A stretch of DNA of 53,949 nucleotides from a bacterium (GCA_041640655.1 JBEPZV010000015.1:1-53949); one strand, 5' to 3'; positions 5,509-30,527 are shown, counted from the first letter of the stretch. The notes: generated by a model not told the origin, from the sequence alone. Program-made: numbers and translations.

Positions 5509-5524
5509 TGGCACAAGTCTTGCT
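5509..5524 (+). promoter_or_regulatory. Sigma-54 promoter for the HydC/B/A-like operon
   Basis: TGGCAC-AAGTC-TTGCT, near-perfect -24/-12 consensus ending 33 bp before ATG 5557. Confidence 0.85.
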
Positions 5525-5556: not shown

Positions 5557-6033
5557 ATGCAAGAGATCGAGGCTATCATCGAGCGCTATGGAGCTCAGCG
5601 GCGGCATGTGATCTCCATGTTGCAAGACATCCAAGCGCAGTTTCACTATTTGCCGAAGGACGCGCTCATGGAGGTCGCCGCTCACGTGCGCATCCCGTTG
5701 ATTGATCTCTACAGCATTGCGACGTTCTATAACTGCTTCTCGCTCCTCCCCAGAGGGGAACATGTCATCAAGGTCTGTCTGGGCACGGCGTGCCATCTGA
5801 AAGGCGGGACCCGATTGGTCGAGGCCCTGGAGCGCGAGTTGGGGGTGCGCGAGGGAGAGATGACGCCGGATGGCCGATTCTCCTTCGAGACGGTTCGGTG
5901 CGTGGGGGCCTGCGCGTTGGCGCCGCTCGTTCTCATTGACGAGCGGTACTATCCGAAGATGACGCAGCGGAAGATGACGCAGGTGCTCGCCCGATTACGG
6001 CGTCCTCGGTCCGCTGCGGAGGCCGGGCGATGA
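5557..6033 (+). CDS. NuoE/HydC-like [2Fe-2S] subunit
   Basis: ATFY, VCLGTACHLKG and CVGACALAP motifs. Confidence 0.9.
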   Translation: MQEIEAIIERYGAQRRHVISMLQDIQAQFHYLPKDALMEVAAHVRIPLIDLYSIATFYNCFSLLPRGEHVIKVCLGTACHLKGGTRLVEALERELGVREGEMTPDGRFSFETVRCVGACALAPLVLIDERYYPKMTQRKMTQVLARLRRPRSAAEAGR

Positions 6034-7877
6034 AGATTCGCACGCTCGAACAACTGCGGGCGTTAGAACACGAGCTGCGCGCGGCGCGCGACCGGAAACC
6101 GTGCGTGCGCGTATGCGGAGGGACAGGATGCCGCGCGCGCGGCAGCGAAGACGTCCTCGGGCGTTTCCGCGCGGTGTTGGAGAGTGAGGGCTTAGCCGAC
6201 GCTGTGGAAGTGAAGTTCACAGGATGCCACGGATTATGCGAGCGCGGCCCTCTTGTCTCGCTCGCCCCTCAGGGGGTCTTCTACCAGGGCGTCGAGGCTG
6301 AGGATGTGCCCGCCATCGTCACGCAGACGCTCGCGCGTGGCGCGGTGATCGAGCGCTTGCTCGCTCAAGATCCGATCACGGGGAAGCGCGTCCGACAGGA
6401 GCAGGAGCTCCCCTTCTATCGGCGACAGCAGCGAATCGTCTTGCGCTTCAACGGCGTGATTGACCCGACCGACATCCGGGAATACATCGCCCTCGGAGGG
6501 TATCGTGCGCTCGGCGACGTCTTGACCCACAAGACCCCGGAGGAAGTGATCGAGATCATCGAACGCTCGGGTCTTCGAGGACGAGGGGGAGCGGGCTTCC
6601 CGACGGGGAAGAAGTGGCGGCTGGCGCGCGCGGCTCCGGGCTCGATCAAGTACGTGATCTGTAATGGGGACGAGGGCGATCCCGGAGCCTTCATGGATCG
6701 CAGCCTGCTGGAGGGGAATCCGCACAGCGTCATCGAAGGGATGATCATCGGCGCGTATGCCGTCGGCGCCACGCGCGGGATCATCTACGTGCGCGAGGAA
6801 TATCCGCTGGCCGTCCGGACACTTCAGATCGCGCTCGCGCAAGCGCGCGAATACGGATTCCTCGGCGAGGCGATCTTCGATTCCGCGTTCTCCTTCGACC
6901 TCGAGATCGTGCGAGGCGCCGGCGCCTTCGTGGCCGGGGAGGAGACGGCTTTGATCGCGGCCGTGGAGGGGAGAGTGAGCGAGCCGCGCCAGCGTCCGCC
7001 TTATCCGGTTCAGCGCGGCGTGTGGGGCCATCCGACCGTCATCAACAACGTCGAGACATGGGCCAACGTCCCGATCATTCTGGAACGAGGACCGGAATGG
7101 TTCGCCCGCCTCGGGACGGCGACGAGCAAGGGGACGAAGATCTTCTCGCTCGTGGGCAAGGTCGCCAACACGGGGCTGGTCGAGATCCCGATGGGGATGA
7201 CGTTGCGAGAACTCGTCGAGGAAATCGGCGGCGGCGCGCTTCCGCAGCGAGAGATCAAGGCCGTGCAGATTGGCGGCCCCTCGGGGGGATGCCTCCCGAA
7301 GGCCCTCTTCGATCTGCCGATTGATTACGAGAGCTTGACCGAAGCGGGCGCGATGATGGGATCGGGCGGCCTGATCGTCATGGACGATCGAACGTGCATG
7401 GTGGATGTGGCGCGATACTTCATGGACTTTCTGCGCGACGAATCCTGCGGGAAATGCCTCCCCTGCCGCGAGGGGACGCAGCGGATGTACGAGCTGCTCA
7501 CGGCGATGTGCGAGGGGCGCGCGACGGATGCCGACCTCGATGTGCTCGAAGAGCTGGCGCAGGTCGTGAAGGAGACATCACTCTGCGGTCTCGGTCAGAC
7601 GGCGCCCAATCCCGTCCTGACGACGCTGCGCTACTTCCGCTCAGAATACGAGGCGCACATTCGGCAGAAGCGCTGTCCGGCGGGCGTATGCAAGGCGCTC
7701 ATCCGCTATGTGATCAATGCCGAGCGCTGCACGGGCTGCGTGGCGTGTGTGCAACCATGTCCGCAACACGCGATCAGCGGTCAACTCAAGCAGCCGCATG
7801 TCATTGATCAGGAGCGGTGCATCAAGTGCGGCATCTGTCACGAAGTCTGTCAATTCGGAGCCGTCGAGATCGTATGA
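6030..7877 (+). CDS. NuoF/HydB-like NADH-binding flavoprotein of the electron-bifurcating (Bfu) type
   Basis: N-terminal thioredoxin-like 2Fe-2S (CGGTGC...GCHGLC), LRGRGGAGFPTG, CNGDEGDPGAFMDR, ESCGKCLPCREG, H..KRCPAGVC and a C-terminal 2x[4Fe-4S] domain. Confidence 0.92.
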   Translation: MKIRTLEQLRALEHELRAARDRKPCVRVCGGTGCRARGSEDVLGRFRAVLESEGLADAVEVKFTGCHGLCERGPLVSLAPQGVFYQGVEAEDVPAIVTQTLARGAVIERLLAQDPITGKRVRQEQELPFYRRQQRIVLRFNGVIDPTDIREYIALGGYRALGDVLTHKTPEEVIEIIERSGLRGRGGAGFPTGKKWRLARAAPGSIKYVICNGDEGDPGAFMDRSLLEGNPHSVIEGMIIGAYAVGATRGIIYVREEYPLAVRTLQIALAQAREYGFLGEAIFDSAFSFDLEIVRGAGAFVAGEETALIAAVEGRVSEPRQRPPYPVQRGVWGHPTVINNVETWANVPIILERGPEWFARLGTATSKGTKIFSLVGKVANTGLVEIPMGMTLRELVEEIGGGALPQREIKAVQIGGPSGGCLPKALFDLPIDYESLTEAGAMMGSGGLIVMDDRTCMVDVARYFMDFLRDESCGKCLPCREGTQRMYELLTAMCEGRATDADLDVLEELAQVVKETSLCGLGQTAPNPVLTTLRYFRSEYEAHIRQKRCPAGVCKALIRYVINAERCTGCVACVQPCPQHAISGQLKQPHVIDQERCIKCGICHEVCQFGAVEIV

Positions 7878-8593
7878 CGAAGCTGCGCGTCAACGGCATC
7901 GAGGTGGAGATCGAGCAGGGCGCGAGCCTGCTGGAGGCCGCTCAGCACCTGGGGATCGAGATCCCCACCCTCTGCTTCCACCCGGGATTGAGCGCCTACG
8001 GCGCGTGTCGCCTTTGCGTGGTCGAACTCGACGATGGTCGGCTCGTCTCCGCGTGCACCTATCCGGCGCAGGAGGGGCTGCGGGTGCGCACGCACTCGCC
8101 GCGCGTCATGCGCGCGCGCCGGATGCTCATCGAGCTGCTCCTCTCCATCTGCCCCAGCTCGAAGCGCCTCCAGGACCTGGCCGCTGAGCATCAGGTCGAG
8201 CGCGTGCGCTTCGCGGTTCGCGATGAGCGGTGTATCCTCTGTGGCCTCTGCGTCCGCATGTGCGCCGAGCAGATGATGGCCCATGCGATCGGGTTCGTGA
8301 ATCGCGGATACCGGCGTCGGATCACGACGCCCTTCGACCTGCGCTCGGAGGTCTGTCGCCGCTGCGGGGGCTGCCTCTACATCTGCCCGGTGTGCGAAGT
8401 GCGCTGCCAGGGAGTGGAGGCGCCGAGCGCCGTCTGTGGCTCCTGTATGACTCCGGCTCCAACGTGTCCTCCCGTGTATGAGGATCTCGCGTGCTATATG
8501 GGGGCGGCGGGCGAATGTGGGACGTGCGTGAGGAGTCCCCGAACGCCCGATTCGCATTCGCCGACAGTCGCAGGAAGGAGGGTGAGGGTATGA
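7874..8593 (+). CDS. NuoG/HydA N-terminal-like Fe-S subunit lacking any H-cluster or molybdopterin domain
   Basis: IPTLC...GACRLC..SAC 2Fe-2S motif, CILCGLCVRMC and CRRCGGCLYIC, Cys-rich tail; ATGA overlaps on both sides. Confidence 0.85.
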   Translation: MTKLRVNGIEVEIEQGASLLEAAQHLGIEIPTLCFHPGLSAYGACRLCVVELDDGRLVSACTYPAQEGLRVRTHSPRVMRARRMLIELLLSICPSSKRLQDLAAEHQVERVRFAVRDERCILCGLCVRMCAEQMMAHAIGFVNRGYRRRITTPFDLRSEVCRRCGGCLYICPVCEVRCQGVEAPSAVCGSCMTPAPTCPPVYEDLACYMGAAGECGTCVRSPRTPDSHSPTVAGRRVRV

Positions 8594-10212
8594 GCTTCTC
8601 ACGATTGAATGCATCGGCCGCGACGCTCACGAAGAATCGGACGGAGGGAGCTATCGTCTCTCTGAGCGGGATGTGTGCGACGTGCCTGGACGGATGCATC
8701 GGGATGTGCGAGATCGGGAAATCGGCCTATCGCGGGGCCGAGGTCATCTACCCACAGCCGTTCGGGATCATCACGGCGGCATCGGAGAAGCGGTATCCGG
8801 TGGATCTGTCACACTTCACGATCCTGGGAACGGTCGTGGGCGCGTGGGGCGTGCCGCCAGACCCAGATGTCGCGATCTTCCCGGCGGTCTCGCTCGAACG
8901 GCGCATCGGTCGAGATAAAGGGATCAAGGTCAAGCTGCCGATCCTCATTCCCGGATTGGGCTCCACGGCCATCGCGAAGAACAACTGGGAGGGGCTGGCT
9001 ATTGGGGCGGCCATCGCGGGCATCCCCCTCACCATCGGAGAGAACGTCTGCGGGATGGACGAGGAGGCCGAATTCAAAAATGGGCGCGTCGTGCGCTCCC
9101 CGGAGATGATCCGTCGGGTGAAGCTCTACAAGGAATGGCAACAGGACGGATACGGGGCGATCATCGTGCAGGCGAACGTGGAGGACACGCGGCTAGGTGT
9201 TCATGAGTACGTCATCTCGGAACTGGGGGTGGAAGCCGTCGAGTTGAAGTGGGGCCAAGGGGCGAAGGACATCGGCGGGGAGGTGAAGATCAAGGACCTC
9301 GGGAAGGCGCAACTGCTGAAGCGTCGGGGCTACATCGTGCTGCCGGATCCGGAGGATCCCGAGGTCATCGAGGCCTTCCGGCGGGGCTCGTTCCACGAGT
9401 TCGAGCGCCACTCGCGCATCGGCATGGTGGATGAGGAGAGCTTCCTCCGGCGCGTCGAGGAGCTGCGGCGCGCCGGAGCGAAGTACGTCTTCCTGAAGAC
9501 GGGCGCCTATCGGCCCGCCGATTTGGCGCGCGCGCTGAAGTTCGCCTCGCTCGCAGGGATTGATCTGCTCACCGTGGACGCGGCCGGAGGTGGCACGGGC
9601 ATGAGCCCCTGGCGCATGATGAACGAGTGGGGGATTCCACCCGTCGAGCTGCATTCGTTGCTCTATCGGTATGCCGACCATCTGGCCCAGCGCGGCGAGT
9701 ACGTGCCCGACATCGCCATCGCCGGCGGTTTCGCCTTCGAGGATCAGATCTTCAAGGGCCTGGCCCTTGGCGCGCCCTACTTCAAACTCATCGGCATGGC
9801 GCGCGCGCCCCTGGCTGCCGCGATGGTGGGGAAAACCATCGGGCGCCGAATCGAGGAAGGAGACCTCCCCGTTTACATCGCCCGCTTTGGCGAGACGGTG
9901 GAAGAGATCTTCGTCACGGCGCCAGAACTCAAGCGCCGGTTCGGCGCGGACTTCAGGCGCATCCCTCCAGGAGCCATCGGTCTCTACACGTACCTGCAGC
10001 GTCTGGCTCAAGGCTTGAGACAGCTCATGTGTGGGAGCCGGAAATTCGCTCTGGAGTATATCAGCCGCGATGACATCGCGGCGCTCACCGAAGAGGCGGC
10101 GCGCATCAGCGGCATCCCACACGTCATGGAGGTGGATCGGGCCTTGGCCGAACGCATTCTGGACGGCGTCACGGCCCCTCAGCCGTTCGCCGAACGAGAA
10201 CTCACCCGCTAA
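8590..10212 (+). CDS. FMN-binding glutamate synthase family protein (stand-alone, no amidotransferase domain)
   Basis: ELKWGQGAKDIGGE, VDAAGGGTGMSP, AIAGG and FKGLALGAP motifs; N-terminal CxxCxxxCxxxC. Confidence 0.82.
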   Translation: MSFSRLNASAATLTKNRTEGAIVSLSGMCATCLDGCIGMCEIGKSAYRGAEVIYPQPFGIITAASEKRYPVDLSHFTILGTVVGAWGVPPDPDVAIFPAVSLERRIGRDKGIKVKLPILIPGLGSTAIAKNNWEGLAIGAAIAGIPLTIGENVCGMDEEAEFKNGRVVRSPEMIRRVKLYKEWQQDGYGAIIVQANVEDTRLGVHEYVISELGVEAVELKWGQGAKDIGGEVKIKDLGKAQLLKRRGYIVLPDPEDPEVIEAFRRGSFHEFERHSRIGMVDEESFLRRVEELRRAGAKYVFLKTGAYRPADLARALKFASLAGIDLLTVDAAGGGTGMSPWRMMNEWGIPPVELHSLLYRYADHLAQRGEYVPDIAIAGGFAFEDQIFKGLALGAPYFKLIGMARAPLAAAMVGKTIGRRIEEGDLPVYIARFGETVEEIFVTAPELKRRFGADFRRIPPGAIGLYTYLQRLAQGLRQLMCGSRKFALEYISRDDIAALTEEAARISGIPHVMEVDRALAERILDGVTAPQPFAERELTR

Positions 10213-10224
10213 GGAGCAGAAGAG

Positions 10225-12513
<2,289 letters not shown>

Positions 12514-13440: not shown

Positions 13441-15249
13441 TTATGCTTCCTGCCGATGCCAGGTGGGCAGCGAAGATGCGTCCACGGTCTGATCCGAATC
13501 CGGCGAAGAGTCGGAAGCGGAGAGCACGACCAGATGCGAGATGCGATGTACAGGCGGCGCCTGCAGAGGCAGCGTGACGGTGAAGGTGCTACCCTTTCCG
13601 ACCTCACTGGTGACGGTGATCGTGCCTCCGTATCCAGTGACGATCCGCTGGCATGTCGCCAGCCCCAGACCCGTTCCTCGTTTCTTCGTCGTGAAGAAGG
13701 GGCGAAAGATCTTATCCAAGTTCTCCGGAGGGATGCCCTCACCGTTGTCGGTGACCGAGAGTTTGATCGCCCGCTCCTGTGGATCGTAACTCGTTCGGAC
13801 GAGGATATGCCCGTCCTCGCGCACCGCCTGAATCGCATTGAGCAGAAGATTGAGGACGACCTTCTGCAACTCGTCCGGATCGGCGATGAGGGACGGCAGC
13901 TCGGGAGCCGGTTGGAACTCCAACGTGATATGATGATTATTCGCGAGCTGAACGCGGGTGGCCGAGACGACATGCTCGACCAGGCGATTCAGATCGGTCC
14001 GGACATGAGCGGGCGGGCGCGGGCGCGCGTAATCGAGCAGATCCGTGATGATGCGATTGATGCGTTGGACCTCTTCCAGGACGTGGCGCAGAACCGAGCG
14101 ATGCGGGTTCTCTTCAGGGAGGTCCTCGAGAATGATCTCCAACGCCCCTTTCATCCCGGCCAGCGGGTTCTTCACCTCATGCGCGAGACCGGCGGCCATT
14201 TCTCCGATCAAGGCGAGCTGTTCAGCCCGCGCCATGCGGCGTTCCAGAAGGACCTGCTCCGTGATGTCGGAGACGACGTGCACAGTCCCATAAACCCGTC
14301 CCTCTTCATCCAGGAGGGGGTCAACGGTAACGCGCAAGATTTGGCCGTTGGGGCGCTCGATGACTTCCGTGACCTGGCAGGGCACATCAGAGGTCGCCCG
14401 CAGATCGGCGCAGTTGGGCAAGGGGGTGTCTCGGCCCAGCATGACCATGCAACAGTGATTCTGCAGGAGCTGCTCGCGGGGCACCCCGAGCAAGCGGCCG
14501 AGCGCCTCATTGGCCTGAATCACGCGCAAGTCGCGCGTGTGAACGGAGATGCCGTCCCGAATGGCATTGAAGGTGCTCTCCCACAGCTTCCGCACGCGCA
14601 GATTCTCCTCGAAGAGGCGCGCATTCTCGATGGCGATGCCCAGTTGATGCCCGATGGCTTCCAGCAGATCCACATCGTCGGTGATCTCGCGATCGGGATC
14701 GTAGGTGGCCGTCACGAGCACACCGATCGTCCGCGCGTGGGCGATCAGGGGGACACAGGCCATGGCATGAAGGCCCAACTGGCGCACGATCGGGCGCGTG
14801 ATGCGCGGATCGGTGGCCGCATCCCGCAGCACCAGAGGTGCGCCGCTGGCGAAGACGCGCCCGGCCACCCCCTCACCGGGCTTGAGCCGATCCACGCCCT
14901 GGACGTACTCGGACGAGACCCCTTGAGCCGCACGCACGCGCAGTTCCCCCGCCTCTGCGTCGAAGAGCATGATCAACGCCATATCGGTCGAGAGCACCTC
15001 GGTGATCGTCCGCAACACTTCCTGCAGCAGCGGATCCAGCTCCCGCGCGCGACTGAGAGCGGCGGCCAGGGAGCTGAGGGCCGTCAACTTCCGCAACGTA
15101 CGCTGAACGTCCTCAGGACATCCCAGGCGATCGGAGGAACCTCGCACGGCTTCGCGTCGGTCCTCGACCGATGGAGGAGAAGTCCCACGAGGGGAGACGC
15201 CTTGCCGCCTTCTGGCCTTCTTCACCACCATAGCCCGCGAGGTCGTCAC
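13441..15249 (-). CDS. Cytoplasmic sensor histidine kinase (GAF-PAS-HisKA-HATPase_c); start uncertain
   Basis: AAGLAHEVKNPL H-box, NLLLNAIQA N-box, DNGEGI, FFTTK and GTGLGL motifs; N-terminal GAF and a PAS with CC...C residues; no TM segment seen. Confidence 0.9.
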   Translation of the reverse strand: MTTSRAMVVKKARRRQGVSPRGTSPPSVEDRREAVRGSSDRLGCPEDVQRTLRKLTALSSLAAALSRARELDPLLQEVLRTITEVLSTDMALIMLFDAEAGELRVRAAQGVSSEYVQGVDRLKPGEGVAGRVFASGAPLVLRDAATDPRITRPIVRQLGLHAMACVPLIAHARTIGVLVTATYDPDREITDDVDLLEAIGHQLGIAIENARLFEENLRVRKLWESTFNAIRDGISVHTRDLRVIQANEALGRLLGVPREQLLQNHCCMVMLGRDTPLPNCADLRATSDVPCQVTEVIERPNGQILRVTVDPLLDEEGRVYGTVHVVSDITEQVLLERRMARAEQLALIGEMAAGLAHEVKNPLAGMKGALEIILEDLPEENPHRSVLRHVLEEVQRINRIITDLLDYARPRPPAHVRTDLNRLVEHVVSATRVQLANNHHITLEFQPAPELPSLIADPDELQKVVLNLLLNAIQAVREDGHILVRTSYDPQERAIKLSVTDNGEGIPPENLDKIFRPFFTTKKRGTGLGLATCQRIVTGYGGTITVTSEVGKGSTFTVTLPLQAPPVHRISHLVVLSASDSSPDSDQTVDASSLPTWHRQEA

Positions 15250-15380: not shown

Positions 15381-16808
15381 ATGGCCAAGTCGAAGATTCT
15401 CATCGTAGATGACGAGGACCTGCTCCGATGGTCGCTTCGCACAAAGCTCGAGCAATGGGGGTATGAGACGCTCGAAGCTGAGACGGCGAAGCACGCCCTT
15501 CGGCTCTTCACCGAAGAGGCTCCGGATCTGGTCCTCCTGGACATCAAGCTCCCGGATGGCTCCGGCATTGATGTCCTGCAGCGGATAAAAGGACAGGATC
15601 CGAACACTCAGGTCATCATCATCACGGCCAACACGACGGTGGACAACGCTATCGCGGCCCTGCGGCTCGGAGCCTTCGACTTCATCTGCAAGCCGATCAA
15701 CTATGGCGAACTGGAGGCGGCCGTTCGAAACGCCCTGGAGACCAGTCGCCTGCGCGATACGCTGCGGCGCGTCCAAGCTTTCCCCAAGAAACGTTTCAGC
15801 TTCGACATGATCGTGGGCGAATCGCCCCAGATGAAGGAGCTGCTGGCCATCGTCAAGCGCGTGGCCGAGAGCGAGGCCTCCTGCGTCGTCCTGCAAGGGG
15901 AATCGGGCGTGGGCAAGGACCTGATCGCGAAGGCGATCCACTACCAGAGTCGCCGCGCCGATTTCCCCTTCGTGGCCGTCAACTGCGCCGCCATCCCGGA
16001 GACGCTCATGGAGACCGAACTTTTCGGCCATGAGAAGGGCGCCTTCACCGACGCGCGAGCGCAGAAGAAGGGCGTCTTCGAACTGGCCGACGGGGGGACG
16101 ATCTTGCTCGATGAGATCGGCGAGCTCCCGCTCGGACTGCAAGCGAAACTGCTGCGCGTGATCGAGGAGCAACAGTTCCGACGCGTCGGCGGTGTGCGCA
16201 ATATCAGCGTGGATGTGCGCGTCATCGCCAGCTCCAATCGGAACCTCGAAGAGGAGGTCAAAGAGGGGCGCTTCCGCGCCGACCTCTTCTATCGGCTGAG
16301 CGTCGTGCAGATCACCATCCCGCCCTTGCGCGAGCGAAAAGAAGACATCTTGCTCATCGCCGAGCACTTCATCAAGAGCTTCAATGTGAAGATGAAGAAG
16401 AACATCCTCGGCCTGGCTCCGGAGACCAAACGCCTTTTCCTCGAGTACCACTGGCCGGGCAACGTCCGCGAATTGAAGAATACGATCGAGCACGCCATGA
16501 TCTTCGAGGACTCGCCGTATCTCACGCCGAGGTATCTGCACGAGCGCATCCTTCGTCCCTCCGCCCAACCGCTCAGCCTCATGCGCCGGCCGGAGAATCC
16601 CTCGGCGCTTCTGGCCCAGCTCGTGGGCAAGCTCACGCTGGAAGAAGTCGAACGCGACATGATTCGACTGGCGCTGGAGGCGGCGAATTGGAATCGAACG
16701 CGCGCCGCGGACCTGCTCGGCATCTCGCGCGATGCCATCCGGTACAAGATCAAGAAGTACAAGCTCGCCCGACCTCCCCTCCTGCCCGGCGAGGTCCAGA
16801 CTGCTTGA
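15381..16808 (+). CDS. NtrC/AtoC-family sigma-54-dependent response regulator
   Basis: Receiver domain (IVDDE, LLDIKLPD), GESGVGKD, ELFGHEKGAFTDA, LLDEIGE, WPGNVREL and a C-terminal Fis-type HTH. Confidence 0.95.
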   Translation: MAKSKILIVDDEDLLRWSLRTKLEQWGYETLEAETAKHALRLFTEEAPDLVLLDIKLPDGSGIDVLQRIKGQDPNTQVIIITANTTVDNAIAALRLGAFDFICKPINYGELEAAVRNALETSRLRDTLRRVQAFPKKRFSFDMIVGESPQMKELLAIVKRVAESEASCVVLQGESGVGKDLIAKAIHYQSRRADFPFVAVNCAAIPETLMETELFGHEKGAFTDARAQKKGVFELADGGTILLDEIGELPLGLQAKLLRVIEEQQFRRVGGVRNISVDVRVIASSNRNLEEEVKEGRFRADLFYRLSVVQITIPPLRERKEDILLIAEHFIKSFNVKMKKNILGLAPETKRLFLEYHWPGNVRELKNTIEHAMIFEDSPYLTPRYLHERILRPSAQPLSLMRRPENPSALLAQLVGKLTLEEVERDMIRLALEAANWNRTRAADLLGISRDAIRYKIKKYKLARPPLLPGEVQTA

Positions 16809-21843: not shown

Positions 21844-22977
21844 ATGATCATAGGCATCCCCAAGGAACGATCCGCGCTCAAGGGGATCGAGGAGAAACGC
21901 GTCAGCCTCTCTCCTGCAGGCGTTCGCGAGGTGACCGCATGGGGAGCTGATGTCGTGGTGACCTCCGGCGCCGGTGCGGGTGCAGGCTTCACGGATGAGG
22001 AGTATCGAGCCGCTGGCGCGCGCATCGTCTACTCCAACGAAGAGGCGATTCGACGGGCTGACCTCGTCCTCAAGGTCCAACGCCCAATCCCCGAAGAGTG
22101 GGCTTTCTTTCAGGAACGCTCCGCCCTGATGGCGTTCCTGCATTTGGCCGTCGCTCCCAAGGAGTTTCTGCGCGCGTTGGTGGAGAAGCGCCTCACGGCG
22201 ATCGGGTTTGAGATCGTCCAGGAACCGGATGGGGCGCTGCCGATCCTGCGCTCCTCGAGCGAGATTGCCGGGAAGATGGCCGTGCAGATCGCCGGTCGCC
22301 TGCTGGAGAGCACCTCCGGAGGCCGTGGGATCTTGCTCGGTGGAATCCCCGGGATCCCTCCGGCGGACGTCGTGATCCTCGGCGGCGGGACGCTCGGCTA
22401 TTACGCCGCGCGCTCGTTTCTCGGCATCGGCGCCAGCGTCTACATCCTGGACAAGGACATGAAGCGCCTCATGGAGCTGGATCGGCTGTTTGAGGGGAGG
22501 GTGGTGACGGCGCTGGCCACGGCGAGCAATATCGAGAAGTTCGTCGCCTTCGCCGATGTCCTCATCGGGGCTGTGCTCGTGCCGGGACAGCGCGCGCCGA
22601 TTCTCGTCACCACGGAGATGGTGCAACGGATGCGCCCGGGGAGCCTGATCATGGACTTCTCCATTGACCAGGGGGGATGTGTGGAGACCTCGACGCTGAC
22701 GCCGAGCGAAGAGTTCCTCTTCACGAGCTATGGCGTGACGCACTTTTGCGCGCCGAATGTCCCGGCCATGGTGGCCCGCACGTCCACGCACGCGCTGACC
22801 AACGCCGCGCTCCCCTATCTGCGCGAGATCGTGCATCATGGGCTCTTGGGCGCGCTGAAGAGAGATGCCGCCTTGCGCCGCGGCCTCTACGCGTTCGACG
22901 GATTCCTCACGCAGGCGCTGCCCTCGCCCGATCTGCCGTGCGCCGATTTGGAGCGCCTGGTGCAGGAGGCCCCATGA
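21844..22977 (+). CDS. ald: Alanine dehydrogenase
   Basis: MIIGIPKE, EKRVSLSP, GRGILLGGIPG, GAVLVPG and SIDQGGCVETS motifs. Confidence 0.9.
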   Translation: MIIGIPKERSALKGIEEKRVSLSPAGVREVTAWGADVVVTSGAGAGAGFTDEEYRAAGARIVYSNEEAIRRADLVLKVQRPIPEEWAFFQERSALMAFLHLAVAPKEFLRALVEKRLTAIGFEIVQEPDGALPILRSSSEIAGKMAVQIAGRLLESTSGGRGILLGGIPGIPPADVVILGGGTLGYYAARSFLGIGASVYILDKDMKRLMELDRLFEGRVVTALATASNIEKFVAFADVLIGAVLVPGQRAPILVTTEMVQRMRPGSLIMDFSIDQGGCVETSTLTPSEEFLFTSYGVTHFCAPNVPAMVARTSTHALTNAALPYLREIVHHGLLGALKRDAALRRGLYAFDGFLTQALPSPDLPCADLERLVQEAP

Positions 22978-24370
22978 TGCATTGGATGGACGAGTATCGG
23001 AAGCGACGCGCGACGGCCGAGGAAGCCGTGAGGCTGGTGCGCTCCGGCTGCCGAATCTTCGTGAGCGGGAATGCCGCGACGCCCTTCGTCCTGTTGGAAG
23101 CGCTCGCGGCGCGCGCCGCGGAGCTGGAGCGCGTCGAGGTGACGCACGTCCTGCTGCTCGGCGAAGACCCACTCTCTCGACCCGAGACGCGCGACCACGT
23201 CCGCCACAATTCGCTCTTCGTCGGACCGGCGGACCGCGCGGCCGTCAACGAGGGACGCGCCGACTATGTCCCGATTCATCTGCATGAGATTCCTCGCCTG
23301 TTCAAGAGCGGACGCATGCCGGTGGATGTCGCGCTCATCCACACGACGCCGCCGGACGAGCACGGTTTCATGAGCCTCGGCGTGGAATGCCTGGCCACGA
23401 TGGCCGCCATCGCGAGCGCGCGCATCATCCTCGCGCAGGTCAACGATCAGATGCCCCGCACGCTGGGCGACTGCTTCGTGCACATCTCGCGCATCACCCG
23501 ATTGGTCGAAGTCTCCTGCCCATTGCCGGAGCTTCAGCGGTCGAGCTTCACCGAAGTGGAACGGCGAATCGGCGAATACATCGCCGAGCTGGTCGAAGAC
23601 GGGGCGACTCTTCAGCTCGGCATCGGGAGCATCCCGGACGCCGTACTCGCCGCCTTGAAGGACAAGCGCGATCTGGGCGTTCACACCGAGATGGTCTCCG
23701 ATGGGATCATGGAGGCGATCGAAGCGGGCATCATCACCGGCGCGCGAAAGACGATTCATCCGGGCAAGGTCGTCTGCACCTTCGCCTTCGGGAGCCGGCG
23801 TCTCTACGACTTCCTGGACAACAATCCGCTCTTCGAATTCCATCCGTGCGACTACACGAACGATCCGTTCATCATCGCGCGCAATGAGAAGATGGTCGCG
23901 ATCAACTCTGCCATTGAAGTGGATCTGACCGGGCAGGTCTGCTCCGATTCGATCGGGACGCAGATTTATTCCGGCTTCGGCGGGCAGCTCGATTTCATGC
24001 GCGGTGCTGCGCACGCGCCTGGCGGGAAACCGATCATCGCGATGCCCTCGACGGCCCGCGGGGGTGAAGTCTCGCGCATCGTCCCGATGCTCCGACCGGG
24101 AGCCGGGGTTGTGACCACGCGCGCGGACGTGCACTACGTGGTCACCGAGTATGGGATCGCGGACCTGCATGGGAAGAACCTGCGGGAACGCGCCGAGGCC
24201 CTCATTCGTATCGCCCATCCGAAGTTCCGCGAGGAGCTGGCCCGCGCCGCTCGCGAACGTCGGCTGCTGCCGACGCTCTTTCATCTCGGAGAACCCGCGC
24301 CGGCGCCCTCTTCTCCCCCGTCGGAGGGGGACGATCCGGCACCGCGAGGAACGGAAGGGGAGGAGCCCTT

Positions 24371-24392
<22 letters not shown>
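22974..24392 (+). CDS. Acetyl-CoA hydrolase/CoA-transferase (4-hydroxybutyrate CoA-transferase-like)
   Basis: TLQLGIGSIP, GVHTEM, INSAIEVDLTGQV, SGFGGQLDFMRGA and VVTEYG motifs; ATGA overlap with ald. Confidence 0.92.
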
Positions 24393-28004
<3,612 letters not shown>

Positions 28005-28012
<8 letters not shown>

Positions 28013-29012
28013 TCTCACGACGACTTATCTCGGCCTGACGCTTCGCAATCCGCTCGTCGTCTCCTCCTGCCCGCTCTGCGAGAGCGTGGACAACATTCGG
28101 CGCATGGAGGAAGCGGGAGCGGCTGCCGTCGTCCTCCACTCCCTCTTCGAGGAGCAACTCCACATCGAGAGCGAGCTTCTGGATCGCTATCTCTCGCACG
28201 GTGCGGAATGCTACGCCGAAGCGCTCAGCTACTTCCCGGATATGGCCTCGTACAAGCTGGGGCCGGAGGAGTATCTGGAGCACATTCGTCGCGCCAAGGC
28301 GGCCGTGAGCATCCCGATCATCGCGAGCCTCAATGGCGTCACGCCGAGCGGATGGATTCGGTACGCTCAAGCGATCGAACAAGCGGGAGCCGATGCCCTG
28401 GAGCTGAACATCTACTATATCCCGACCGATCCGAATCTCACCAGCACCGAGGTCGAGCGCCGATATGTCGAGTTGGTGCGCGCCGTGAAAGAGAGCGTCA
28501 CTCTCCCCGTCGCCGTCAAGCTCGGGCATTTCTTCACCGCTTTCGCGAATGTGGCCAGACAGTTGGACGACGCCGGAGCGGATGCGCTCGTGCTCTTCAA
28601 TCGTTTCTATCAACCCGACTTCGACGTGGAACGGTTGGAGGTTGTCCCGACGTTGACCCTCAGCCGCTCGTATGAGCTGCTGCTGCGCATTCACTGGGTC
28701 GCTCTCCTCTACGGGCGCATTCGCGCGGATCTGGCCGTCACCGGAGGCGTGCACACGGTCTACGATGTCGTGAAAGCCATCATGGCCGGAGCCAGCGTCG
28801 CGATGATGGCCTCGGCACTGCTGAAATACGGCATCGGCTACATGCGCACGGTCCTGGCCGACCTCGCCCAATGGATGGAGGAGCACGAGTACGAATCGCT
28901 CCGCCAGATGCGCGGGAGCTTGAGCCAGCAGCGGGTGGCCGAGCCCGCCGCCTTCGAGCGGGCGAACTACCTGCGCGTGCTCAGCTCCTACGCGTGGCGC
29001 TTGCCGGAATAG
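28005..29012 (+). CDS. Dihydroorotate dehydrogenase-like flavoprotein (PFOR-associated type)
   Basis: [40 protein letters not shown] and FERANY motifs. Confidence 0.85.
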
Positions 29013-29150
29013 GCGCATGCCGGCCTGAAACCTTCCGGGGCCGCGCGGGATCATATACGGTGCTGGGGCGGATCTGATTCGCGAGTGGGCCCCGCACGTG
29101 GGTCCCCCGCGTCAGACGCCCGAGAGCGGCGAGAAAGGAGGAGACGCGCG

Positions 29151-30527
29151 ATGCACTATCCATGGTGGTATGTCCCGTTCCTCACCTCCCCCATGCTCAT
29201 CGCCATCATCGCCGTCCTTCATGTCCTGGTCGCGCACTACGCGGTCGGCGGCGGCCTCTTTCTGGCTGTCGAGACGCAGTATGCCTACCGGCAGAACCAC
29301 CGGGAATACCTCGCCTATCTGAAGGAACACGCCTGGTTCTTCATCCTGATCACCGTGGTCTACGGAGCGATCACGGGCGTCGGCATCTGGTGGACGATCG
29401 GCGTCGCTTCGCCCCTGGCCACACAGACCCTCATCCACATCTTCGTCTTCGGATGGGCGATGGAATATGTCTTCTTCGTGCTGGAGATCGTGTCGGCGTT
29501 CATCTTCTACTATTTCTGGGGACGGCTCGATCCGAAGACCCATGTGCGCGTGGGCTGGATGTACGCGGGATCGGCGTGGATGAGCCTCGTGATCATCACC
29601 GGCATCACGGCCTTCATGTTGCATTCCGGGCGATGGCCGGACGAGCGCACCTTCTGGGCCGGCTTTTTGAATCCTCAATTCGTCCCGCAAGTGCTCGCGC
29701 GCACGGGTGGGGCCTTCCTGCTCGCTTCGCTTTATGTCTACCTGCACGCTGCGTTCAAGGCGAAGGATCCCGCCTTGCGCGATCTGATCGCGGCGCGATC
29801 GGCCCGACCGGCTCTCCTCGGATCCCTCTTGATCGTCCTGGGGGGGATCGGCTGGTTCCTCACGCTGCCCGAATCGGCCAAGGCCGCGCTGGTCGCCGCG
29901 AGCACGCTGAACATCCTCGTCGTGCTCCTGTTCGCCGTCACGATCGCCGTATTCTTCATGCTCTATCTCGGCCCCTATCGAAATCCGGGCTGGCTCTCGC
30001 CCGGATTCGCCCTCCTCTTCTTCACCTTCGGGCTCGTGGCGATCACCACGGGCGAGTACATCCGCGAGGCCGTTCGAAAGCCGTACATCATCTACAACGT
30101 GGTCCTGGGCAACCAGATCTACGCGGAGAAGGTGCCGGAGCTCCGTCGGATCGGCTATTTGGAAGGTGGAACCTGGACGAAAGCGTGGGTGAGCCACCAT
30201 TACCCTCAGGTCTTGAACGACGGCCGCATTGATCCGCCGCGGCTCCTGATGCTCCCTGAGGAAGATCAGGTGAAGCTCGGCGAGGTCCTCTTCCTCTATC
30301 ACTGCAACGATTGCCACGCGGGACGACGCGGGTTCTCAGCCGTCGGCCAACTGCTGCGCGGATGGACGCCCGACATGGTGCGCACGGTCGTGAAGCACCC
30401 GGAGAAAGCCCACTTCTTCATGCCGCCTTGGGCTGGCACGCCCGAGGAAGCGGAATTGCTCACGAAATATCTCCTTCGGATCGCGCACCCGCGACCCGGC
30501 GGCATGCGTTTCGGAGAAGAGCGATAG
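29151..30527 (+). CDS. Cytochrome bd subunit I (CydA)-like protein with fused C-terminal cytochrome c
   Basis: About 9 TM segments, LHVLVAHYAVGGG, WAMEYVFFVLE, EYIREAVRKPY (GRQPW-like), CNDCH heme c site and FMPPW. Confidence 0.75.
   Translation: MHYPWWYVPFLTSPMLIAIIAVLHVLVAHYAVGGGLFLAVETQYAYRQNHREYLAYLKEHAWFFILITVVYGAITGVGIWWTIGVASPLATQTLIHIFVFGWAMEYVFFVLEIVSAFIFYYFWGRLDPKTHVRVGWMYAGSAWMSLVIITGITAFMLHSGRWPDERTFWAGFLNPQFVPQVLARTGGAFLLASLYVYLHAAFKAKDPALRDLIAARSARPALLGSLLIVLGGIGWFLTLPESAKAALVAASTLNILVVLLFAVTIAVFFMLYLGPYRNPGWLSPGFALLFFTFGLVAITTGEYIREAVRKPYIIYNVVLGNQIYAEKVPELRRIGYLEGGTWTKAWVSHHYPQVLNDGRIDPPRLLMLPEEDQVKLGEVLFLYHCNDCHAGRRGFSAVGQLLRGWTPDMVRTVVKHPEKAHFFMPPWAGTPEEAELLTKYLLRIAHPRPGGMRFGEER

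Follow-up and report, generated by a model that had tools for sequence, protein, structure and literature searches.

Analysis of a 53,949-base contig from a bacterial genome assembly (GCA_041640655.1, JBEPZV010000015.1:1-53949; hereafter the window) showed that four genes at positions 5557–10212 form a conserved operon, which encodes an enzyme of the Bfu type whose catalytic module is of a new kind. The genes are called here C (BfuC-like), B (BfuB-like), A (BfuA-like), and G, the last encoding a flavin mononucleotide (FMN) protein of the PF01645 family. Their arrangement is well beyond chance, since the same order recurs in 71 of 80 related loci. We propose, giving the proposal an even chance of being correct, that the product is a Bfu enzyme of Type 2, with 2-oxoglutarate + NH4+/glutamate as its third substrate pair, coupled to NAD(H) and ferredoxin.

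The three junctions C/B, B/A, and A/G all read ATGA, the start codon of each gene overlapping the preceding stop codon. The ATG at 8590, rather than the upstream GTG at 8491, was taken as the start of G because homologues align from residue 1 and residues 7–40 are almost invariant. The copy of G in the ESM Atlas begins at residue 39, read as Met (window 8590–8706 encodes residues 1–39). A start at that residue would drop three of the four invariant N-terminal cysteines of the protein; therefore, database copies of the G family may be mis-started. No hydrogenase, formate dehydrogenase, or Nuo membrane family was found among the window open reading frames scanned with Pfam.

The first three genes carry the domains of a Bfu core. 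In the available parts of PMC9304861, BfuB is defined by NuoF FMN-binding, SLBB, NuoF 4Fe-4S, and 4Fe-4S ferredoxin-type domains (IPR011538, IPR019554, IPR019575, and IPR017896), BfuC by a NuoE-type thioredoxin-like [2Fe-2S] domain (IPR002023), and BfuA by at least a 2Fe-2S ferredoxin-type and a 4Fe-4S ferredoxin-type domain. These definitions were applied through the Pfam counterparts of the InterPro entries, and all of the domains were found in B, C, and A, respectively. In B, Pfam identified PF01512 (164 bits), PF10531 (SLBB, 33 bits), and PF10589 (119 bits), together with a PF01257 stretch at residues 24–99, which is the N-terminal thioredoxin-like 2Fe-2S domain, and Fer4/Fer4_10/Fer4_9 matches at residues 560–612, which represent the C-terminal 2x[4Fe-4S] ferredoxin-like domain. 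The motifs HIRQKRCPAGVC at 543, CTGCVACVQPCP at 567, and CIKCGICHEVC at 597 were recognized; both CxxCxxCxxxC motifs are retained, and an H..C..C linker lies between the NuoF core and the ferredoxin-like end. Over its full length, B scored 688–821 bits against eight full-length B subunits of solved Bfu-type enzymes (7t2r_B, 7q4v_B, 9mqx_B, 8a6t_B, 9n5u_B, 9bov_B, 7p5h_B, and 8oh5_B) and 672 bits against the truncated HydB chain 7q4w_B, whereas the best complex-I NuoF reached 391 bits, about half of the Bfu-type scores.

Subunit C matched PF01257 (170 bits, residues 4–147), has cysteines at positions 74, 79, 115, and 119, and fell below all NuoE/HoxE equivalog cut-offs of NCBIfam. Subunit A contained PF13510 ([2Fe-2S], 66 bits) and a Fer4 dicluster (Fer4_7 at residues 119–173), with two [4Fe-4S] motifs of the ferredoxin type. 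Pfam found no H-cluster domain in A, and the H-x3-C-x2-C-x5-C motif of a His-ligated cluster is missing between residues 74 and 119, where C93 is the single cysteine. The tail of A holds eight cysteines, from C174 to C218, and 20 Cys positions of the protein, including these eight, are kept in 51–53 of 53 homologues. The best solved relative of A was 9mqx_A, the 247-amino-acid (aa) BfuA of the tungsten aldehyde oxidoreductase (WOR)-Bfu enzyme, which scored 122 bits when A alone was the query and 169 bits when a family profile built from 46 sequences was used (positions 2–204 of 229); the eight-Cys tail aligned with it only in part. Type 2 of the Bfu family is described in the accessible portion of PMC9304861 as having a BfuA without the A3 and A5 clusters and a catalytic site on a further subunit. 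A, which lacks the His-ligated cluster motif and aligns with the Type-2 BfuA 9mqx_A, may belong to this type; assigning its eight-Cys tail to a named cluster would take a structure. An earlier note on this DNA, made from the sequence, had described four genes with ATGA overlaps, a HydB-like subunit with the N-terminal thioredoxin-like 2Fe-2S domain, the H..KRCPAGVC motif, and the C-terminal 2x[4Fe-4S] domain, a HydA-like subunit of 239 aa with iron-sulfur (Fe-S) motifs, a Cys-rich tail, and no H-cluster, and no adjacent hydrogenase, formate dehydrogenase, or Nuo membrane genes. All of these features were recovered here, and its assignment of the HydB-like subunit to the Bfu enzymes agrees with the domains and bit scores of B.

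The operon is widespread, and its presumed catalytic subunit is unusually conserved. At least 577 stretches encoding a relative of G were found in a collection of 185,579 species; the best 80 of them were compared as loci and belong to organisms with at least 17 phylum names from both domains. More than 8,000 relatives of G at E ≤ 1e-5 were found in a protein collection, where scoring was confined to the 8,000 candidates with the most words in common. Of these, the best 120 were 74–94% identical, with source names from bacteria and archaea, and identity between bacterial and archaeal G proteins was 70–80%. Distant G-like proteins (46–47% identity, PF01645 at 42–46 bits) were also observed in two genomes of the phylum to which the genome of the window belongs, G101 and G237. 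No Bfu genes were found in the surrounding DNA that was examined (loci L087 and L088); one of the two genes is divergent beside a CCG-domain (HdrD/GlpC-like) gene, and the other lies at a contig start.

In 77 of the 80 loci, the gene immediately upstream of G is A, and the three exceptions have no more than 287 bases upstream. B is present in 71 loci; among the nine others, eight have no more than 2,908 bases of sequence before G. The ninth, L077 (2651–7971), has a full flank with no BfuB or BfuC; its A is truncated to 160 aa and preceded by Mrr-like and TraG/TrwB-like genes, which suggests that this locus was disrupted by a mobile element. That G appears to belong with the HydCBA-like genes as one enzyme is well supported by comparative evidence, because the genes are translationally coupled through ATGA, their order is conserved in 71 of the 80 loci, and the Cys-rich tail of A is both particular to this family and conserved. 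The synteny search proposed in the earlier note thus found G together with the HydCBA-like genes. Of the claim made there that G is the catalytic subunit of a confurcating enzyme for reductive amination or amino-acid oxidation, the link to HydCBA stood, and the amination of 2-oxoglutarate and the confurcation are kept here as conditional parts of the proposal.

The BfuB subunit was found in two main forms. The form of about 615 aa with the ferredoxin-like end occurs in 28 of the 80 loci, and BfuB exceeds 900 aa in 39; one further BfuB has 851 aa, and three are cut by contig ends. In L009, the sole long BfuB scanned by Pfam, a GltD module (Fer4_20 + Pyr_redox_2) follows right after the NuoF 4Fe-4S domain and takes the place of the ferredoxin-like domain. 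The branch that ends in ferredoxin in the window operon appears to end in NADP(H) in the GltD-fused relatives. On a FastTree phylogeny of 75 G proteins, the two forms were intermixed (19 changes vs. 22.0 +/- 2.2 in 200 label shuffles), and the supported branches alone force at least 10 changes of form; therefore, G would work with either form. The open reading frames of the flanks were clustered by single linkage, and one representative per cluster was scanned by Pfam. Glutamate dehydrogenase was found nearby in 14 loci, glutamine synthetase in 8, and a 116-aa protein without a Pfam family upstream of G in 11. Other neighbours vary, for example, a succinyl-CoA synthetase in L012 and a PPDK_N protein in L043.

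PF01645 was the sole Pfam family of G even at E ≤ 10 (53.1 bits vs. the cut-off of 20.4), with partial coverage at model positions 63–156 and 185–303 of 369. At the same threshold, Pfam gave no match of G to PF01070 (FMN_dh) or IMP dehydrogenase, NCBIfam assigned no family to it, and an ESM Atlas search returned PF01645 clusters only. The amidotransferase, central, and GXGXG domains of glutamate synthase were all absent from the 540 aa of the protein. Sequence profiles place G, albeit weakly, in the PF01645 family; it is a member of this superfamily and not a canonical glutamate synthase. The only cysteines of G are 29, 32, 36, 40, 154, and 481, of which the first four form an N-terminal C-x2-C-x3-C-x3-C motif that is invariant in the family. 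This agrees with the earlier description of the fourth gene as a glutamate synthase FMN barrel with an N-terminal CxxCxxxCxxxC motif and no amidotransferase domain.

Comparison of the residues of G with those of glutamate synthase (GltS) revealed several shared motifs. G150-E151 and Q223-G-A-K226 are invariant in 47 of 47 sequences, and N152, the GGGTG stretch 333–337, and G379-G380 are further invariant residues; the invariant residues lie at the C-terminal ends of the modelled barrel strands. R246 is nearly invariant and has the right spacing. When the GltB encoded in the same genome was aligned to 1llw_A, E903 fell in S-G-E-G-G-E, Q969 and K972 in Q-G-A-K, Q978 in G-G-Q, and R992 in L-R. 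By motif and Pfam coordinates, Q223-G-A-K226 of G can be matched to Q969-G-A-K972 and G150-E151 to G902-E903, and E231 or V232 is a possible counterpart of Q978. We take E903, Q969, K972, Q978, and R992, in the numbering of ferredoxin-dependent GltS (Fd-GltS), to be the 2-oxoglutarate-binding and catalytic set, and we infer that G works like a glutamate synthase site.

The AlphaFold2 model of G, built from a 47-row alignment, had a predicted template modelling score of 0.81 and a confident TIM barrel at approximately residues 100–500, with low confidence for residues 1–90, which hold the four cysteines. Foldseek and VIA-align (VIA) both placed G in the FMN-linked TIM-barrel group. In VIA, Z was 22.9 for type-2 isopentenyl diphosphate (IPP) isomerase, 22.9 for mandelate dehydrogenase, and 22.1 for lactate oxidase; for the FMN-dependent 2-hydroxy-acid oxidase/dehydrogenase family (PF01070), 1huv_A gave Z 22.9 with a root-mean-square deviation of 3.1 over 296 aligned residues. 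The glutamate synthase 6s6s_A gave Z 18.2 over 351 residues, the longest alignment among the listed rows. E values of 3.5e-10 and 3.5e-8 were obtained for 6dvi_A, also of the 2-hydroxy-acid family, and the glutamate synthase 1ofd_A, the latter at 17% identity, and the identity of G to GltS in structural alignments was 13–17%. The modelled fold alone thus would not settle the family of G.

By analogy with Bfu enzymes of known structure, the proposed enzyme would operate as follows. The product of the four genes would be a single soluble iron-sulfur flavoenzyme, a member of the Bfu (HydABC-type) family, in which B would hold FMN and bind NAD(H), this FMN would form the bifurcation site together with the NuoF-type [4Fe-4S] cluster of B and the [2Fe-2S] cluster of C, and the C-terminal 2x[4Fe-4S] domain of B would serve as the ferredoxin branch. 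In PMC12018979, the bifurcation site is described as consisting of the FMN, a [4Fe-4S] cluster next to it in B, and the [2Fe-2S] cluster in C; the clusters of A link this site to the third substrate, and clusters B3/B4, equivalent to the C-terminal clusters of B, pass electrons to bound ferredoxin. Through two [4Fe-4S] clusters and its eight-Cys tail, A may wire this core to the N-terminal Fe-S cluster and FMN of G. There, 2-iminoglutarate, formed from 2-oxoglutarate and free NH3, would be converted to L-glutamate, or the reverse, in a synthase site without a glutaminase domain. Overall, NAD(H) and ferredoxin would be coupled to 2-oxoglutarate + NH4+ <-> glutamate, and in the host the operon would be expressed from a sigma-54 promoter. 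Glutamate chemistry at G is plausible, with the chances for and against it about equal, and we infer the physical complex, its substrate, its direction, and the bifurcation.

A number of observations weigh against this proposal. At the level of G, the [3Fe-4S] cysteines of GltS (C-x5-C-x4-C after the last barrel strand) are absent, whereas a C..C..C stretch is seen in the aligned region of the GltB from the same genome and of 1ea0, and the matching of residues between G and GltS relied on short motifs and Pfam coordinates rather than on a structural alignment. Lactate monooxygenase, mandelate dehydrogenase, and type-2 IPP isomerase ranked level with or above GltS in Foldseek and VIA. The family profile of G found no GltS chain in the PDB at E ≤ 1; both phmmer and this profile returned designed TIM barrels only. 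In hhalign, G matched the FMN domain of the host GltB with 33% probability over 101 columns, and hmmsearch, used to bridge G to GltS, aligned the GGTG region only (32 residues). These results bear on an alternative in which the complex is the same and the chemistry at G differs: G would act, for example, on a different 2-oxo or imino acid, on a 2-hydroxy acid (2-hydroxyglutarate or lactate), or in some unrelated FMN reaction, and the Bfu core would link that couple to NAD(H) and ferredoxin. We regard it as rather unlikely. In fold, G is no farther from type-2 IPP isomerase and the 2-hydroxy-acid oxidases/dehydrogenases than from GltS; it has no sequence-level match to solved GltS chains, and lacks the [3Fe-4S] site and all other domains of GltS; the variable operon neighbours (succinyl-CoA synthetase, PPDK_N protein, and, in the window, malic enzyme) also suit another substrate. 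However, PF01645 is the sole Pfam family of G, with FMN_dh and IMP dehydrogenase not found at E ≤ 10, and neither the Q-G-A-K nor the G-E motif varies. The functional neighbours that recur are glutamate dehydrogenase and glutamine synthetase, and BfuB has the size of a GltD fusion in 39 of the 80 loci, GltD being the natural partner of the GltB FMN domain.

The host and the other carriers provide further points, some against the proposal and some in its favour. The host is a hot-spring metagenome-assembled genome (128 contigs, 89.8% complete), and the sequencing runs listed as containing the sequence are of DNA from hot springs and sediment, with no RNA run among them. The host encodes a canonical GltB (an open frame of 1,558 aa on contig C16), two glutamate dehydrogenases, and one glutamine synthetase; therefore, the four-gene enzyme is not needed there for glutamate. 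Four heme-copper oxidase homologues were also found, something not usually expected of a genome that encodes an oxygen-sensitive enzyme of the Bfu type. In favour of the proposal, the genome encodes five 2-oxoacid:ferredoxin oxidoreductase homologues, one of them a 1,213-aa protein in the window; therefore, reduced ferredoxin is available. A complex-I NuoF is encoded as well. The operon thus comes on top of a full assimilation set, and its host has aerobic capacity, unlike the "anaerobe" picture of most carriers. A weak PF01645 match on contig C11 was considered as a G paralogue and rejected, as it is IMP dehydrogenase. The nearest named relatives of the host G are Bacterium HR08 and Blastocatellia. 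The operon was probably acquired horizontally by the host lineage, because G was found in none of 15 sampled genomes of its class, and the nearest G proteins on the tree after that of HR08 are archaeal (Methanophagales/Methanobacteriota, 77–79% identity).

The GltB central domain, PF04898, was detected in 7 of 50 carrier genomes of unspecified completeness (four strong matches and three weak ones in 523–557-aa frames) and not found in the other 43, whereas the same search was positive in 13 of 14 control genomes. A sample of 201 genomes of the host phylum contained G in 19, PF04898 (E ≤ 1e-10) in 66, and both in two; PF04898 was thus present in 2 of 19 carriers (the host and G197) vs. 64 of 182 non-carriers, including the unpublished G099. 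Within the phylum, the depletion of GltB in carriers is weak, only 35% of the non-carriers having GltB, and the relatives compared are not independent. The direction of the contrast fits the G enzyme as a substitute for GOGAT, and the contrast is modest.

The energetics were considered from the potentials of the three couples. The E0' of 2-oxoglutarate + NH4+/glutamate is about -0.13 V. Physiological potentials of about -280 mV for NADH and about -500 mV for ferredoxin are given in the available part of PMC9304861. With these values, two stoichiometries are possible. In the usual Bfu manner, NADH and reduced ferredoxin would reduce two 2-oxoglutarate to two glutamate, which would be strongly exergonic; alternatively, two NADH would yield glutamate and reduced ferredoxin, which would conserve energy and has no precedent in the Bfu family. 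The reverse direction, a ferredoxin-assisted oxidation of glutamate, is conceivable in amino-acid fermenters.

An alternative that keeps the complex and the substrate dispenses with energetic coupling: the enzyme would be a plain NADH- or ferredoxin-dependent, ammonia-utilising glutamate synthase, with the extra clusters serving as wires. Reduction of 2-oxoglutarate + NH4+ by NADH is already exergonic (about -0.13 V vs. -0.32 V), which would make coupling needless, and HydABC-like enzymes without bifurcation have reportedly been described (PMC13556243), a further point against the coupled enzyme. The BfuB of GltD-fusion size in 39 loci, the replacement of the ferredoxin-like domain by a GltD module in L009, and the intermixing of the two forms on the G tree can be read in the same way. 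We nevertheless consider this alternative unlikely. B retains every domain that defines a bifurcating BfuB, including the N-terminal 2Fe-2S and the C-terminal 2x[4Fe-4S] domains, and scores twice as high against the eight solved Bfu-type B subunits as against NuoF; moreover, four subunits with about eight predicted clusters would be a costly substitute for the single-subunit glutamate dehydrogenase, of which the host has two. A far-reaching version of the proposed enzyme is ATP-independent, energy-conserving ammonium assimilation (2 NADH + Fd_ox + 2-oxoglutarate + NH4+ -> 2 NAD+ + Fd_red + glutamate, where Fd is ferredoxin), in which one electron pair of the bifurcated NADH would go downhill to 2-iminoglutarate and the other uphill to ferredoxin, or to NADP+ in the GltD-fused relatives, and which would replace the glutamine synthetase–GOGAT pathway in hundreds of mostly uncultured species. 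We think it improbable; if true, this would be the first Bfu enzyme in which NADH, and not the third substrate, is the mid-potential donor.

Finally, two separate neighbouring enzymes, a BfuABC module serving another partner and a stand-alone G, are scarcely credible: the complex prediction of A with G, both as alignments, gave no answer (score 0.01, mark 0.32) and counts neither way, and G, having its own Fe-S motif, could take electrons from free ferredoxin, but the start and stop codons overlap, A adjoins G in 77 of 80 loci from at least 17 named phyla, mobile-element genes disrupt the only locus that lacks B despite sufficient flank, and the eight-Cys tail of A, only partly aligned to the BfuA of WOR-Bfu, is kept in nearly all homologues.

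The features of the window and of two related loci are listed in Table 1. The putative sigma-54 promoter, TGGCACAAGTCTTGC, is separated by 34 bases from the start codon of C downstream, an interval that includes a ribosome-binding site (GGGAG), and is the only exact consensus in the window, the other three matches having one mismatch. Four sites with up to one mismatch were reached in 27 of 100 shuffles, so that the count is not significant; therefore, the promoter call rests on the exact match and its position. In 48 loci with a called C gene, searched from -300 to +150 of its start, such sites were found in only four, with about one expected from the background rate of the same loci; this is weak and weighs against the proposal. 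A cluster of response-regulator-like open reading frames, whose scanned representative is a sigma-54-dependent activator, was found in 24 of the 80 loci, mostly upstream of the operon and on the same strand, and a heterogeneous histidine kinase cluster was also found in 24 loci. The label NtrBC was not adopted for the kinase and regulator pair of the window, as no NtrB/NtrC or other NCBIfam equivalog cut-off was reached.

Table 1. Coordinates of the operon genes, candidate regulatory elements, neighbouring genes, and distant G-like genes (window positions unless a locus is named)
Feature	Position	Strand	Basis	Remark
C, BfuC/HydC/NuoE-like [2Fe-2S] subunit, 158 aa	5557..6033	+	PF01257	
B, BfuB/HydB-like FMN/NAD(H) subunit, 615 aa	6030..7877	+	Pfam, motifs, PDB comparison	
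A, short BfuA, 239 aa	7874..8593	+	PF13510, Fer4 dicluster	hydrogenase-less
G, FMN TIM-barrel protein, 540 aa	8590..10212	+	PF01645	presumed catalytic subunit
Putative sigma-54 type promoter, TGGCAC-N5-TTGC	5509..5523	+	exact consensus	TGGCACAAGTCTTGC
NADP-type malic enzyme (MaeB form, PTA-like domain)	10225..12513	+	Pfam, NCBIfam	
Protein with three WG-containing beta repeats, 170 aa	12564-13076		PF14903, 150 bits	after malic enzyme, conserved in HR08
GAF-PAS histidine kinase	13441..15249	-	Pfam	candidate sensor for the adjacent sigma-54 activator
NtrC-family sigma-54-dependent response regulator	15381..16808	+	Pfam	candidate activator of the promoter at 5509
Distant G-like protein, L087	7950-9608	-	PF01645	
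Distant G-like protein, L088	135-1670	+	PF01645	

The malic enzyme gene begins 12 bases past G and has a ribosome-binding site of its own; as no terminator-like site separates the two genes, it is probably co-transcribed with the operon here. It was considered as a fifth conserved gene and rejected, being found in none of the 80 loci and missing in the nearest relative, L007, a contig of Bacterium HR08. L007 shows 90–91% DNA identity in both flanks and is without window positions 10216–12397 (at L007 5255–5258). This segment of 2.18 kb comprises most of the malic enzyme gene, the last ~116 bases of which are kept; the gap looks like a deletion in the HR08 lineage rather than an insertion in the window. 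A divergent citrate synthase gene lies upstream of the operon. At 22677–29012, a gene for an acetyl-CoA hydrolase/transferase is succeeded by genes for a single-chain pyruvate:ferredoxin oxidoreductase of 1,213 aa and a dihydroorotate-dehydrogenase-like protein, with overlapping ends (genes at 24371–28012 and 28005–29012); the three may form a ferredoxin-linked unit, 14 kb away from the operon. The gene at 29085–30527 encodes a 480-aa protein with a weak N-terminal match to cytochrome bd subunit I (54 bits) and a C-terminal cbb3-type cytochrome c domain, an unusual fusion.

The Bfu family swaps its catalytic module, which may be a hydrogenase, a formate dehydrogenase, a WOR, or an NADPH module; the searchable papers list no FMN module resembling glutamate synthase. 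No paper joining a Bfu/HydABC/NuoEF module to a GltB-like subunit was found in the full-text literature, a search beyond whose scope most subscription papers lie, and this agrees with the statement of the earlier note that it knew of no biochemical description of the combination. The word glutamate is absent from the available text of PMC9304861, and one supplementary file contains no glutamate, Glt, or IPR002932, although its larger tables could list the clade; the available parts of PMC6349859, PMC5736913, PMC6338057, PMC9012536, PMC7282089, PMC10945688, and PMC7325909 are not about the operon. The four-gene enzyme may be an undescribed link between ammonium, 2-oxoglutarate, and glutamate. 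If it links NADH and ferredoxin to glutamate, reconstructions of nitrogen assimilation and redox balance will change for many uncultured lineages, and a high-potential organic substrate will be added to the Bfu repertoire.

Among the known systems, WorABCSL (Wor-Bfu), a Bfu enzyme with a tungsten aldehyde oxidoreductase from Acetomicrobium mobile (PDB 9mqx; PMC12318220, available part), shares with the operon a BfuBC core and a short BfuA (~240 aa) that lacks the His-ligated cluster; its catalytic subunit is a separate protein attached to BfuA, as is proposed for G; 9mqx_A is the best solved match of A, and 9mqx_B scores 757 bits to B. Its catalytic module is a tungstopterin aldehyde oxidoreductase, whereas that of the operon is an FMN TIM barrel of PF01645. 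NiFe-HydABCSL (7t2r) and FeFe-HydABC (7q4v, 8a6t, and 7p5h) match B at 699–821 bits over the full length with both end domains, and C is of the NuoE/HydC type; unlike these enzymes, the operon has neither an H-cluster domain nor NiFe subunits. The NfnABC/Stn (Nfn-Bfu) transhydrogenase (PDB 9n5u; PMC12018979 and PMC7483475, in the parts available) likewise combines a Bfu core with a glutamate-synthase-derived module. In Nfn, however, this is a GltD module fused to BfuA, the third substrate being NADPH, whereas the window operon has no GltD; in the long-BfuB relatives, GltD replaces the ferredoxin-like end of BfuB, with a GltB-like FMN subunit besides (the module is shown for L009). HydB::GltD fusions were reported in archaeal hybrid hydrogenase complexes, with the GltD-like domain modelled as a low-potential acceptor site (PMC11216029, available part). 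The long-BfuB relatives share this fusion logic, but the archaeal complexes carry hydrogenase subunits, whereas the operon has G and no hydrogenase. Finally, the FMN domain of GltB/Fd-GltS (PDB 1ea0, 6s6s, and 1ofd/1llw) shares with G the PF01645 family, the FMN TIM-barrel fold, and the Q-G-A-K, G-E, GGTG, and (A/D)GG motifs; unlike GltB/Fd-GltS, G has no amidotransferase, central, and GXGXG domains, and a four-Cys N-terminal motif replaces the [3Fe-4S] site.

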